Shown: positions 13,654-20,200 of the stretch, in pieces
Numbering within the stretch: position 1 is the stretch's first letter
Layout of the letters: each line of letters starts with the position of its first letter
Sequence record: OY726582
Reading direction: 5' to 3' (one strand)
Source: Escherichia phage vB_Eco_NicPhage
Length of the DNA stretch: 64,000 bases
Position numbers and translations under genes: made by a program
The notes under the pieces: model-generated
What the model was told of the DNA's origin: nothing
The model's database searches: none
The model's input: the letters and a program-made list of their open reading frames with translations, nothing else

Positions 13654-14685
13654 TTATTTGAAAGGTTTTACCATATGAAAGTTTTGTTTGAAACGCTTGA
13701 CGTAATCGTCGTGTCCTAAGCTTTGGTACATACTTACTACTTTGCTATAATTTTCCCAAGCGAACTCACGGAACCATCCTGATGTGATTGATGTACAGAC
13801 CTTTTCAAGGGCCATCATAAAACTATCACGTGGATGGATTTCAAAGTTATTAGGAATCTGAGAACGTTCTAACGCTAGTACACATGATTCTTCGTATACG
13901 CCGGCCAATTTGACCATTTCTGGTAATGATTCGAACTTCTCGCGTGAGGTCATGACTTCAGAACCATCTTTCATATAAAATGTATACGCTGGACGGTCTG
14001 TTAGTGCAATGGCTTCGTGAATAGTATCATGATCGTATGTGTAGATGTCATCTTTAAAGAATGCGCTTTTAGAAGTGTCAAGAACCGGGTGAGCATAATT
14101 CAAAGTTTCTTTCTGGCGTTTCAGCATAATTTCAGTAAGTTCATCGTTCAGTGTAACACCTTTACCACGAAGATACTGAATATGGTTCATAGTCTTTAAA
14201 AAGAATGGATTATTTTTCTTGAAACGATGAGACATCTTAATTGCAAGACATATCTCAGGAGTTGCCCAGTAAAACCCGTTCAAACGGTCTTTAGTCAAAT
14301 TTTTCTTGGCGTATTTTAAAAGGTCATAAGAAGACGTGAAATCTTCAGGAGTGAGTTCACCGACTAATTCACGGACATTAGTGATTGCCGGAACAATATA
14401 TGCTTCAAAATGAGTTTCGCGTCCATTATGGAAGCATTTGAAAACTTGGACATCAGGGTTATCTTGGTGAACATATACACCCATCATTTGATTTTTGAAT
14501 GCATTCCAAGAACCTTGGTCCGCAATAAAGTCCCAATCACTATTTTTAATAGCGCTAGAATCAATAAGACCGTGATAGTGAAGTGCACGAGAACCAATAA
14601 CTAACATCATAATATTTTCCTCGGAGTAATTCATTAACTTAAATTTCACGACATGCGATATTATATTCATCCCAGAGGTCATCAT
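13654..14685 (-). CDS. nucleotidyltransferase-fold-like protein
   Basis: 343 aa; motif VIGSRALHYHGLIDSSAIKNSDWDF resembles Pol-beta NTase GS...D.D; weak. Confidence 0.45.
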   Translation of the reverse strand: MMTSGMNIISHVVKFKLMNYSEENIMMLVIGSRALHYHGLIDSSAIKNSDWDFIADQGSWNAFKNQMMGVYVHQDNPDVQVFKCFHNGRETHFEAYIVPAITNVRELVGELTPEDFTSSYDLLKYAKKNLTKDRLNGFYWATPEICLAIKMSHRFKKNNPFFLKTMNHIQYLRGKGVTLNDELTEIMLKRQKETLNYAHPVLDTSKSAFFKDDIYTYDHDTIHEAIALTDRPAYTFYMKDGSEVMTSREKFESLPEMVKLAGVYEESCVLALERSQIPNNFEIHPRDSFMMALEKVCTSITSGWFREFAWENYSKVVSMYQSLGHDDYVKRFKQNFHMVKPFK

Positions 14686-14890
14686 GTGAAGCCTCTACCA
14701 ATGGAACGATTGTACCGTTTATGTCTTCATTATAAGGGCAAATTGTACAGTGCGCATCTTCGAATCGGATGCCTTTGTGTTCAGATTTTTTATAACGCAT
14801 ATCGAATATCTTTGCAAACTTTTCACGAGTAATGGTTTTAGCAACCACTTTAGTTCCGATACTTTCGTAATAAATCATTGTGGACTCCAT
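14639..14890 (-). CDS. hypothetical protein (Cys/His-containing)
   Basis: 83 aa ORF immediately downstream of early promoter cassette. Confidence 0.4.
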   Translation of the reverse strand: MESTMIYYESIGTKVVAKTITREKFAKIFDMRYKKSEHKGIRFEDAHCTICPYNEDINGTIVPLVEASHDDLWDEYNIACREI

Positions 14891-14896
14891 TTGTTT

Positions 14897-14937
14897 TGAT
14901 AGGACTACTATAACATAGCCCTATCTTGTTGTAAACT
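14897..14937 (-). promoter_or_regulatory. early promoter cassette
   Basis: GTTTAC ... dyad GATAGGACTACTATAACATAGCCCTATC. Confidence 0.55.
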
Positions 14938-14940
14938 GTT

Positions 14941-15138
14941 TTAGCAAGAATAACTAGATGATACCCAGCCTTGAACAGTGATACTATTGTGGGATAATGA
15001 GATCGCGTCCTGGAGATTCAGACCTGCGTTATCTTCAATCCATAATGTAACTTCTTCGCGTTCTTCTGTTGCAATTTGGAACAGGTTTTCCAGAGCAGCT
15101 ACTGCCGTACGTACAGCACAATCTAATTCACGAGACAT
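14941..15138 (-). CDS. small protein, paralog 1 of W-V-S-S-S-x-x-C tail family
   Basis: 65 aa; ends QGWVSSSYSC; ATG with SD GGAAACA. Confidence 0.5.
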   Translation of the reverse strand: MSRELDCAVRTAVAALENLFQIATEEREEVTLWIEDNAGLNLQDAISLSHNSITVQGWVSSSYSC

Positions 15139-15147
15139 ATTGTTTCC

Positions 15148-15420
15148 TTAGCAAGTGTGAGAAGATGCGACCCAACCACCGGTTTCGAGGCTCAGGTTGT
15201 AGTCGTATTGGTAAACGTCAGCCCATTCAGCATAGCCGTTTTTTGCACAACGTTCAAGATCGGCTTTAAGATGTCCGGGTGAATGATAGGTTCCACCCAT
15301 ACCATAAGCTGGGTACAAGTTGAATGTTGTGTTTTGTTTATCAGCAATTTCTTTGGCAGCCTCAATAGCTGCATAGATTTTTGCTACAGCTTCAGCCAGT
15401 TCGGTTTGTTCTTTAGACAT
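15148..15420 (-). CDS. small protein, paralog 2 of W-V-S-S-S-x-x-C tail family
   Basis: 90 aa; ends GGWVASSHTC; SD GGAATCA. Confidence 0.5.
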   Translation of the reverse strand: MSKEQTELAEAVAKIYAAIEAAKEIADKQNTTFNLYPAYGMGGTYHSPGHLKADLERCAKNGYAEWADVYQYDYNLSLETGGWVASSHTC

Positions 15421-15429
15421 AATGATTCC

Positions 15430-15735
15430 TTAGCACAACGCAGAAGACGAAACCCAAGCACCTTCAGTAATAACGTAACCATTACCTTCACGCTTAACAT
15501 CGCCACCATTATTTTCAATTTCATCTTTCATCCACTGGGATACGATTTCACCCTTAGGATAATAAGTACGACCGCTACCATAATCACCTACAGAAAATGA
15601 TACGGCATATTGGTCTGCGATCTTTGTTGCTTCTTCTTCGATACGTTCAGCTTGATTCAGAAGTTTATAAATTGCATCTGAAGCGGATTTGGCATCATTA
15701 AACTCTGGTACTTTAATTTCAATAATCTTACTCAT
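15430..15735 (-). CDS. small protein, paralog 3 of W-V-S-S-S-x-x-C tail family
   Basis: 101 aa; ends GAWVSSSALC; SD AAGGAATG. Confidence 0.5.
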   Translation of the reverse strand: MSKIIEIKVPEFNDAKSASDAIYKLLNQAERIEEEATKIADQYAVSFSVGDYGSGRTYYPKGEIVSQWMKDEIENNGGDVKREGNGYVITEGAWVSSSALC

Positions 15736-16091
15736 TTTCTACATTCCTTAATAAAGTTTTCTATTGTTTCATTTTCACGTCTAGCTAGGAGTTCATTATA
15801 ACTAATCATTTGAGAAGCGTAAACCTTTTTATTTTTCTTGTTATGGTTTATAAAATCGTAGTAAAAATAGACTACAGTACAAAATGATGCGATGGATGCA
15901 AAGGCTTGGGTATACCGTAAGTCTTGCCATTGGTCTGTGAATCCACCAGTGTTCCCTATAAATCCTAACACAACGCCGTCAATAAGAAATCCAACTAATC
16001 CAAAGGCAAATCCCACGCCAATACTTATAATAAAAATTAGAATGTTCTCACCAAGAGAAGGCCATACGGTTAAGAGTTGAGGCTTTTGCAT
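15732..16091 (-). CDS. membrane protein with C-terminal ENFIKECRK tail
   Basis: 119 aa; 2-3 TM helices; SD AAGGAAAT. Confidence 0.5.
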   Translation of the reverse strand: MQKPQLLTVWPSLGENILIFIISIGVGFAFGLVGFLIDGVVLGFIGNTGGFTDQWQDLRYTQAFASIASFCTVVYFYYDFINHNKKNKKVYASQMISYNELLARRENETIENFIKECRK

Positions 16092-16465
16092 CTTATTTCC
16101 TTAACGAATTCCATAGCTTCTTCATATTCATACTTTTTAACAGCTTCATCATACTGAGCTTGGGCTTTTGCGCACTGAACTCTCCATTCTCTTACTCGAG
16201 CTCTGTGATGACGGCCTTGGTGCCAATATCCAATCCAGTTAATAGGCATTAATAAAAACGGTACAATAAGTGGTGCGACGAACATTAATGAAAACGCTGC
16301 ATCAGACGATATAACTTCACTAGAATCTAAAACAGCTCCTATAATCATAAAGATTAAAAATGCTAAAGCTAAAATAGGGCCAAATAATACTTCATTTGGG
16401 ATTAATTTACGCTTGTATTCATACGCCCAGGGCTTACTTGGCATGTATAGGGTTGGCTTTGACAT
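16070..16465 (-). CDS. membrane protein with C-terminal EFVKEIRCK tail
   Basis: Track ORF 16070..16495; start moved to MSKPTLY (SD GGAATGTAGAGAAT); two TM helices. Confidence 0.45.
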   Translation of the reverse strand: MSKPTLYMPSKPWAYEYKRKLIPNEVLFGPILALAFLIFMIIGAVLDSSEVISSDAAFSLMFVAPLIVPFLLMPINWIGYWHQGRHHRARVREWRVQCAKAQAQYDEAVKKYEYEEAMEFVKEIRCKSLNS

Positions 16466-17036
16466 ATTCTCTACATTCCATAATAAATTGCTCAAGGATT
16501 AAATTGTTAGTGAAATTAGGACTAACAACCATAGTTTCATAAAGCGCATCAATAGCACTTAAAGCATCAACTCTTTTAAGCAAAGGCTTGCCTTCATACA
16601 TAGTTTCAGAATCGATGATTAACGTAAAGTAATATTTTTTATTATCGACTAGAACTTCTGTATCGATATAAAACATGTTAGACCTTAAAAGCTTATCTCT
16701 AAAACCATAATAATCTTCAGAGCGTTCGCTGATATATTCCCATTCAGTGTTTAAACAACAAACAGACCATGTAGGAGCAACGAAATCAGTGAATCTAATA
16801 TCATGGTCTGCAACTAGTTTAGCAATAGCTCCGATATCATGAATCATAATACCTGGGGCTAATAAAGATTTTCTGCTATGGCTAGCCGTTTTCTCAGTAG
16901 TCTCATAAGAAGACGACCAGTACCATTTACGTCCGGTTGCAACATATCGTAATGAATCAACTAAAGACGTAGGTGGATTTACCTTATCTCGGAACTCTTC
17001 GAACATTGAGTCAATATCATTATTTTGGTTTCGCAT
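16434..17036 (-). CDS. hypothetical protein with EQFIMECR motif near C-terminus
   Basis: Track ORF begins at TTG 17057; ATG at 17036 (MRNQNNDID) has SD AAAGGAG. Confidence 0.5.
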   Translation of the reverse strand: MRNQNNDIDSMFEEFRDKVNPPTSLVDSLRYVATGRKWYWSSSYETTEKTASHSRKSLLAPGIMIHDIGAIAKLVADHDIRFTDFVAPTWSVCCLNTEWEYISERSEDYYGFRDKLLRSNMFYIDTEVLVDNKKYYFTLIIDSETMYEGKPLLKRVDALSAIDALYETMVVSPNFTNNLILEQFIMECREYVKANPIHAK

Positions 17037-20043: not shown

Positions 20044-20120
<77 letters not shown>

Positions 20121-20123
20121 GAT

Positions 20124-20200
20124 TGGTGACCCAGACCAGATTCGAACTGGTAACCTTTCCCTTATGAGGGGACTGCTGCTAACCGTTGAGCTACAGGGCC
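20124..20200 (-). tRNA. tRNA with CAU anticodon (Ile2-type or Met)
   Basis: 77-nt cloverleaf: GGCCCTG acceptor, anticodon loop CUCAUAA, T-arm ACCAG-TTCGAAT-CTGGT, encoded CCA; 5' half resembles E. coli ileX as recalled. Confidence 0.75.

Follow-up and report, generated by a model that had tools for sequence, protein, structure and literature searches.

Escherichia phage vB_Eco_NicPhage encodes, in a tandem array, members of a phage-restricted and previously undescribed family of small acidic alpha/beta proteins that end in an invariant, cysteine-terminated tag, and this array is the upstream half of a module whose downstream half is a nucleotidyltransferase with a MenT/AbiEii-like fold. Both halves lie within the window, i.e., the entire stretch of 64,000 nucleotides analyzed here (sequence record OY726582), but the initial annotation of the array had left out the enzyme gene (13654-14610), so that the context it gave was incomplete. 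The module points to an unstudied enzyme-plus-partner system in big lytic phages. The explanation that we favor, and hold tentatively, is that the small proteins are the enzyme's partners: their invariant tag would be read by the nucleotidyltransferase, and these clients would probably be nucleotidylated.

The window belongs to a Mosigvirus (an RB69-like T4-type phage), and over the 1.6 kb around the three genes it shares 99% identity with Shigella phage JK36 and Escherichia phage APCEc01. Relative to T4, in which e.2 and e.3 abut, the trio is an insertion between these two genes. Its members were recovered as exact ORFs on the minus strand, Cys-ending tails included, as originally described, and with stop codons counted they span 14941-15735 precisely: the "a-type" gene (101 aa; 15430-15735; equivalent to RB69ORF139c/138c; supported as an ORF and by a PHROG match), the "b-type" gene (90 aa; 15148-15420; RB69ORF137c equivalent), and the "c-type" gene (65 aa; 14941-15138; RB69ORF136c equivalent), whose products terminate in GAWVSSSALC-COOH, GGWVASSHTC-COOH, and QGWVSSSYSC-COOH, respectively. 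The 101-aa protein has a long N-terminal helix with an ..A..IAD.. motif, then a DYGSGRTYYP hairpin, and then the tail; the 90-aa protein carries an AYGMGGTYHSP loop, and the 65-aa protein comprises a helix, a short beta region, and the tail, with no YG loop. The stop of the e.3 homologue and the start of the 101-aa gene share an ATGA, 9 nt separate consecutive genes of the trio, and the TAAGGA formed by each stop codon and the bases following it serves as the Shine-Dalgarno site of the next gene. Upstream of the array, within the e.3 homologue, is a minus-strand promoter-like site (15795-15823; TTTACG-17-TATAAT), annotated in phage SA79RD as T4 middle-promoter-like. Directly after the 65-aa gene there is a minus-strand hairpin (14898-14925) with an 11-bp stem and no U-run (RNA fold of -16 kcal/mol, z=-4.2), which the record of SA79RD, a close relative, annotates as a terminator and which is overlapped by a sigma-70-like promoter match at 14907-14935.

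Because the tail codons of the three copies (GGTGCTTGGGTTTCGTCTTCTGCGTTGTGC, GGTGGTTGGGTCGCATCTTCTCACACTTGC, and CAAGGCTGGGTATCATCTAGTTATTCTTGC) differ at synonymous sites, the tail is conserved at the level of the protein. This bears out an earlier claim, as do dN/dS values of 0.14-0.49 for all three genes (calculated against orthologues in JS98, a Klebsiella phage, and an Enterobacter phage), which support translation of the trio under purifying selection. A six-frame scan of stop-to-stop ORFs of at least 30 aa found the tail in no other ORF of the 64-kb window. We also considered a repeated DNA element or a coupling signal as the cause of the tail and discarded both, since synonymous sites differ; moreover, the 65-aa gene has the tail with no coupled gene after it, and distant phages retain it.

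The three genes had been presented as tandem paralogues, and for two of them this stands: on alignment, the 90- and 101-aa proteins are true paralogues, both matching PHROG 899 (7.3e-19 and 1.3e-22, respectively) and each other by BLASTP (E=2e-6 over 73 residues). The aligned region includes the YG.G.TY loop and the IAD helix, in agreement with the N-terminal features that they had been said to have in common. The 65-aa protein, in contrast, matches PHROG 4882 (7.7e-37), and its BLASTP matches to the other two (E=1e-3 and 4e-4) lie around the tail only, as does its profile-profile alignment with the main family (hhalign), which covers only 10 tail columns (probability 77%). Since only the tail aligns, the 65-aa protein is at most a putative full-length paralogue; it has the tail and the general architecture (an N-terminal helix, a beta region, and the tail) in common with the other two.

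The family, not recognized at first sight, is uncharacterized: neither the three proteins nor 61 diverse members had a Pfam match above the gathering score, NCBIfam returned no match, PADLOC yielded a chance match only (E=0.01), and the PDB held no sequence or fold match, including no likeness in fold to the solved nucleotide-signal sponges (Tad1, Tad2, and Acb2 type). Profile searches, proposed at the outset as a way of detecting a well-characterized family, matched only PHROGs 899 and 4882, both of which are clusters with no assigned function, and a literature search covering RB69 ORF names, DUF7275/DUF7277, PHROG identifiers, phage MenT-like enzymes, and C-terminal-cysteine phage proteins retrieved nothing relevant. 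The family is nevertheless large. Searches with tblastn located the a-type in 484 phage records, the b-type in 285, and the c-type in 251, and an exhaustive profile search of 1.84 billion representatives recovered 711 clusters at E<=1e-3; the b-type is the commonest subtype in metagenomes. Among 136 newly found distant cluster representatives, 128 end exactly in Cys, and nearly all of these 128 also have W at -7 (126), S at -4 (127), and S at -3 (125), whereas a YGMGG-type loop is present in 101 of the 136. The Y-G-M/S-G-G/R-T-Y-Y hairpin occurs in most family members.

The same picture emerged from 231 unique ORFs of upstream arrays, in which Cys is the last residue in 224 and the S-S pair is conserved at its first Ser in 229 and at its second in 211. 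The spacer between S-S and Cys comprises two residues in 168 of these ORFs, none in 45, three in 12, and one in 6. The conserved element is thus W-x-x-S-S followed by a terminal Cys and not a fixed ring size, and this tag is the only element common to all subtypes. Oxygen or sulfur nucleophiles occupy 6/10 of the invariant or near-invariant positions (Y52, T57, Y58, S97, S98, and C101). The small proteins are acidic, with a median pI of 4.4 and 90% of them below 5. AlphaFold2 modelled the 101-aa protein with confidence (pLDDT 93.2) as a helix (15-43) and a five-stranded sheet with a tail strand (93-96) and turn (97-100), the tail being predicted as ordered and packed on the domain (pLDDT about 91). 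No fusions of the small family with an enzyme were found in a Rosetta-stone search, and long members add only coiled-coil N-termini.

Arrays of these genes recur widely, with sizes of four to five in JS98 and other Dhakaviruses, five in Klebsiella and Enterobacter phages, three in PM2, phAPEC8, and Acinetobacter phage Lazarus, two to four in Yersinia phages, and two on a 371-kb jumbo contig. Five subtypes recur: a (DYGSGRTYYP), b (AYGMGGTYY), c (65 aa, no hairpin), d (~74 aa), and e (FWYSSSMQNC), of which the d-type has the motif twice, as an internal DW.NSSCYGE and a terminal IW.PSSC. Double-motif paralogues at four loci (L015 1699-1929, L017 2928-3152, L018 1969-2187, and L008 5674-5952) look like internal duplications of the tag. 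When the distribution of the trio across T4-like phages was followed up, as had been recommended, its subtypes were found in Mosigvirus, Dhakavirus, Klebsiella, Enterobacter, Pectobacterium, and Yersinia phages, and in JS98, Klebsiella, Enterobacter, PM2, and Yersinia TG1 phages the c-type orthologues sit at the corresponding place in the array. Because the same genes occur in the same order in related genera, the trio is an old, conserved array and not a recent local expansion; the description of the region as "hyperplastic" therefore does not hold, given identical subtypes in identical order across genera, some with 4-5 paralogues.

Individual genes of the array vary among close relatives. 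In the RB69 record (AY303349, 69737-70040), the 101-aa gene is split into ORF138c and ORF139c (two tblastn pieces; 71-aa product), and in other assemblies the 90- and 101-aa genes occur in frameshifted forms of 75 and 64 aa. Either the genes can be dispensed with or these forms are sequencing errors. Phages of the LF82 series carry an allele of the 90-aa gene (15148-15420) with only 75.6% protein identity to that of the window, whereas for the 101-aa and 65-aa genes the identity is 100%, a pattern that suggests mosaic exchange within the array.

Two genes downstream of the array, the window encodes a 318-aa DUF7277-DUF7275 protein (13654-14610, minus strand), a pol-beta-type nucleotidyltransferase. 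Its mechanical ORF comprises 343 aa, extending to 14685 and overlapping the end of the 83-aa gene upstream, but homologues and database annotations place the start 25 codons later, at MMLVIGS (14610). Across 32 homologues, G6-S7, D25-x-D27, and E69 are invariant and constitute the signature of pol-beta nucleotidyltransferases; also invariant are K125, H128, H194-D195, H198, E240-E241, E248-R249, and KVCTSITSG.FR. The AlphaFold2 model of the enzyme (pLDDT 90.4) has the MenT/AbiEii pol-beta fold with its GS and DxD catalytic motifs. By sequence, the enzyme falls outside AbiEii/DUF1814: Pfam at E<=1 gives DUF7275 and DUF7277 only, and there was no match to a PADLOC AbiE model, to NCBIfam, or to a PDB sequence. 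MenT toxins add nucleotides to tRNA 3'-CCA ends, and MenT1 is controlled by the 68-aa MenA1, which is encoded directly upstream (PMC10435456, PMC11375011). In MenT toxins, a Ser/Thr phospho-acceptor lies two residues before the catalytic Asp (T39-x-D41 in MenT1, S78-x-D80 in MenT3; PMC11375011); among seven divergent homologues of the phage enzyme, the position two residues ahead of the first Asp holds N, P, T, C, V, G, or P and so appears not to be conserved.

One clade of enzymes, from actinophages and Vibrio phage K412 (14 loci), is shorter and lacks the otherwise invariant KVCTSITSGWFRE segment; in three aligned members, Cys is replaced by Thr. Actinophage and Vibrio versions (L012 4004-4747, L013 3809-4597, and L014 3818-4600) are about 60 residues shorter, are missing the greater part of the beta-sheet region and with it the position of E69, have K-T-[VI]-T-S in place of KVCTS, and have no neighbors from the tail family. 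In distant phages, the enzyme module lies 2-5 kb from genes for RNA ligase 1 or polynucleotide kinase or adjoins tRNA genes (L003 689-3478, L009 1696-2874, L012 938-1810, and the upstream regions of L010, L013, and L067); this proximity to Rnl1, PNK, and tRNA genes hints at a role related to RNA ends.

The small genes and the enzyme are strictly syntenic. The enzyme was found downstream and on the same strand in all 34 loci that were seeded with the small family and had enough flank (27 IMG/VR loci plus loci opened individually beforehand), and in all of the divergent loci opened (a jumbo metagenomic phage, Pseudomonas phiPsa267, phAPEC8, Aeromonas Asswx_1, and Yersinia TG1) it follows the small genes. 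Conversely, a pattern scan of 80 enzyme-seeded IMG/VR loci detected one to six upstream, same-strand tail ORFs within 3.5 kb in 74 (75 after inspection), with only 4 pattern matches elsewhere in these 80 loci. These counts include many related genomes, so that independent events are much fewer, but the association holds across several phage families: the linkage spans Straboviridae, the rV5-like Phapecoctavirus, Otagovirus, the Acinetobacter Lazarusvirus, and 350-370-kb jumbo phage contigs, and in several divergent loci the end of a small gene and the enzyme ORF are no more than about 4 nt apart. A scan of bacterial and archaeal genomes (one each for 185,579 species) returned five loci, each of which lies on a MAG contig and has a KVCTSITS-type enzyme together with tail ORFs, and the AYGMGGTYY coding pattern had 0 matches in genomes versus 9 in IMG/VR; on this evidence, the module is essentially viral.

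The association has exceptions. Tail ORFs were present in none of the 14 loci of the short enzyme clade, and since an entire clade manages without tail genes, the enzyme has an independent function. In addition, no tail gene was located within 2.5 kb of five enzymes of the Cys type (L067, with KVCTSITS, and L088, L091, L094, and L116, with KICTSITS). In T4-like phages, the array and the enzyme are separated by the hairpin, the promoter-like site overlapping it, and an unrelated 79-aa gene (14639-14878, minus strand, within an 83-aa ORF reaching to 14890; the RB69ORF135c equivalent), which matches PHROG 3723 (no function assigned), is not a member of the tail family, and occupies this position in T4-like phages only. 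This gene has a conserved ..RFEDAHC..C/DPY.. motif and could be a further component of the module.

From these observations we infer physical contact between the enzyme and the small proteins, a role for the tail in that contact and, possibly, a covalent transfer. The tail had been suggested to be a shared interaction or modification motif, and its family-defining character fits this proposal, the contact itself being the inferred part. Variable acidic bodies all carry a single tag, W-x-x-S-S-(0-3 residues)-Cys-COOH, that would be read by the MenT/AbiEii-like DUF7277-DUF7275 enzyme. [quoted passage not shown] In this way, a single enzyme may serve several clients that bear the tag, probably by nucleotidylating them, and the differing bodies of these clients would perform differing jobs in the infected cell; the small proteins could be its substrates or its pseudo-substrate regulators. 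We prefer to regard them as clients because several paralogues have one invariant tag, because 6/10 of the conserved positions are nucleophiles, and because every one of the structurally related enzymes has a hydroxyl as its acceptor. Whereas the interfaces of cognate toxin-antitoxin pairs normally diverge, paralogues with one tag beside a single enzyme resemble clients with a processing or docking tag.

Counting in favor of this model, the small proteins are real and under selection (as evidenced by strong Shine-Dalgarno sites, coupling, dN/dS, and a confident fold), and the KVCTSITS segment and the tail genes co-occur at the level of clades. Counting against it, the tail is predicted by AlphaFold2 to be ordered, with no floppy arm obviously able to reach the active site; five loci with Cys-type enzymes (within 2.5 kb) and one whole clade do without tail genes; and a hairpin, a promoter-like site, and an unrelated gene stand between array and enzyme in T4-like phages. 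We know of no precedent for protein nucleotidylation by a MenT-type enzyme besides autophosphorylation, and MenT-type nucleotidyltransferases are, to our knowledge, otherwise known only as modifiers of tRNA ends. It is unlikely that the module represents viral protein-tagging in which a MenT-type enzyme covalently nucleotidylates, or primes an oligonucleotide on, the conserved Ser/Cys tag of a whole family of small phage effectors; if it did, protein-nucleotide conjugates would act on the host, the chemistry joining enzyme and client would be of a new class, and phage biology would gain a new C-terminal tag.

The main rival to the client model is that the small proteins are antitoxin-like inhibitors that bind, silence, or time a toxin-type enzyme extending tRNA 3' ends, as MenA1 does MenT1, with the phage employing the enzyme, e.g., to shut off its host. 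Here, the tail and the acidic body would act as a plug or as a pseudo-substrate that does not react, or auto-inactivation of the enzyme would be set off by the N-terminal helix. We consider such inhibition possible rather than likely. Up to six paralogues accompany each enzyme gene, unlike the 1:1 ratio of toxin-antitoxin pairs, the invariant part of the small proteins is the tail and not the helix, and they have no likeness in sequence or fold to MenA1 or AbiEi. The phospho-acceptor Ser/Thr of MenT (PMC11375011) appears not to be conserved in the phage enzyme, as judged from the seven homologues, and addiction logic is inapplicable to a module that is absent from bacterial chromosomes and resides on virulent phages.

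Third in order is the view, which we hold to be unlikely, that the small proteins are directed at the host as effectors or decoys, e.g., mimics of the tRNA acceptor end that soak up host toxins, or other anti-defense inhibitors. The tail would then be read by a host protein or bind a metal, and the enzyme would be a related neighbor acting with no contact, e.g., in tRNA-end repair. Several observations are in keeping with this: the proteins are acidic and stem from a region of early/middle type, paralogue diversification and allele swapping (such as the 75.6% LF82 allele and the frameshifted copies) are typical of counter-defense genes, the enzyme is often near Rnl1/PNK or tRNA genes, and one enzyme clade occurs without small proteins. 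However, host targeting leaves unexplained why the family adjoins this enzyme only, and essentially never lies elsewhere in the same genomes or loci, and why the KVCTSITSGWFRE segment, otherwise ultra-conserved, is missing from the very enzyme clade in which the family is absent. Still less likely, and in our estimation improbable, is binding of a small ligand or metal, in which a pocket made up of the YG.G.TYY hairpin and S-S...Cys would bind the enzyme's nucleotide product or a metal, as a sponge or carrier, or in which the tail would be cross-linked in the manner of RiPPs by lanthionine/AviCys-like Ser-Cys chemistry. The invariant residues do combine a Gly-rich hairpin with hydroxyl and thiol side chains, and the proteins are similar in size to known phage sponge proteins, but subtypes c, d, and e have the tail without the hairpin, the strong net negative charge disfavors nucleotide binding, and no solved sponge matches the fold. 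In the AviCys of epidermin, Ser is at -3 relative to the C-terminal Cys, a spacing that the a, b, and c types reproduce; against such a cross-link, anywhere from 0 to 3 residues lie between Ser and Cys, the neighboring genes inspected encode no dehydratase, cyclase, or flavin decarboxylase domain, and the protein is a folded domain (pLDDT 93) and not a leader-core peptide.

Among known systems, MenAT1 of M. tuberculosis comes closest, although several defining features of MenAT/AbiE systems are missing. As in MenAT1 and AbiE/DUF1814, the phage module has an enzyme with this fold and with GS and DxD motifs, and the partner of MenT1 is encoded directly upstream on the same strand, as are the small genes at 34/34 and 75/80 phage loci. 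Unlike MenAT/AbiE, the phage enzyme lies outside the AbiEii/DUF1814 models by sequence and has about 120 extra, extremely conserved C-terminal residues; the small proteins differ in fold and are not homologous to MenA1 or to COG5340 AbiEi/MenA3; there are 1-6 paralogues per enzyme, with a conserved Cys-ending C-terminal tag; and the module is restricted to large virulent phages instead of residing on bacterial chromosomes. The conceptually closest precedents for small proteins as substrates are HEPN-MNT and GlnD-PII, in which a pol-beta enzyme modifies a hydroxyl residue of its small partner, just as the phage pol-beta-fold enzyme is paired with small proteins rich in invariant Tyr, Thr, and Ser. 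In the phage module, however, neither partner is homologous to these, the putative acceptor is a C-terminal Ser/Cys tag and not a loop Tyr, and there are multiple clients. CaaX boxes, sortase LPXTG signals, and PEP-CTERM likewise place a short, invariant C-terminal motif on divergent proteins with a dedicated enzyme nearby, but the phage proteins are cytoplasmic, their tag is a free Cys end predicted to be part of the fold, and the neighboring enzyme is a nucleotidyltransferase and not a prenyltransferase or transpeptidase. RlaP and the CCA-adding-type RNA-repair enzymes of large phages (PMC7824862) are also phage pol-beta enzymes, and the enzyme described here is often near Rnl1, PNK, and tRNA genes; it has no PF10127 match at E<=1, however, and RlaP and CCA-type enzymes lack small Cys-tailed partners.

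The module is carried by large lytic phages (T4-like, rV5-like, and jumbo), including many therapeutic candidates, and neither of its halves has a known function. With at least 711 clusters at 50% identity, the tail ranks among the most rigid C-terminal signatures in phage "dark matter." The question raised is whether phages use toxin-type tRNA nucleotidyltransferases offensively, defensively (i.e., repairing or shielding tRNA 3' ends under host immune attack), or for protein modification, and each of these answers would bring something new to the warfare between phages and hosts over translation and would supply names and annotations for thousands of hypothetical genes (PHROGs 899, 4882, and 2141; DUF7275/DUF7277).

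Two further features of the window were recorded. The e.4 homologue (16070-16495; a 141-aa ORF) is designated a "sulfurtransferase" in JK36 and related records, a label that looks doubtful; its hydrophobic stretches resemble membrane segments. At 20044-20200, ARAGORN predicted tRNA-Arg(tct) and tRNA-Met(cat), the second of which is given as tRNA-Asn in the near-identical JK36 record and, with its CAT anticodon, could be an Ile2 (lysidine) tRNA.
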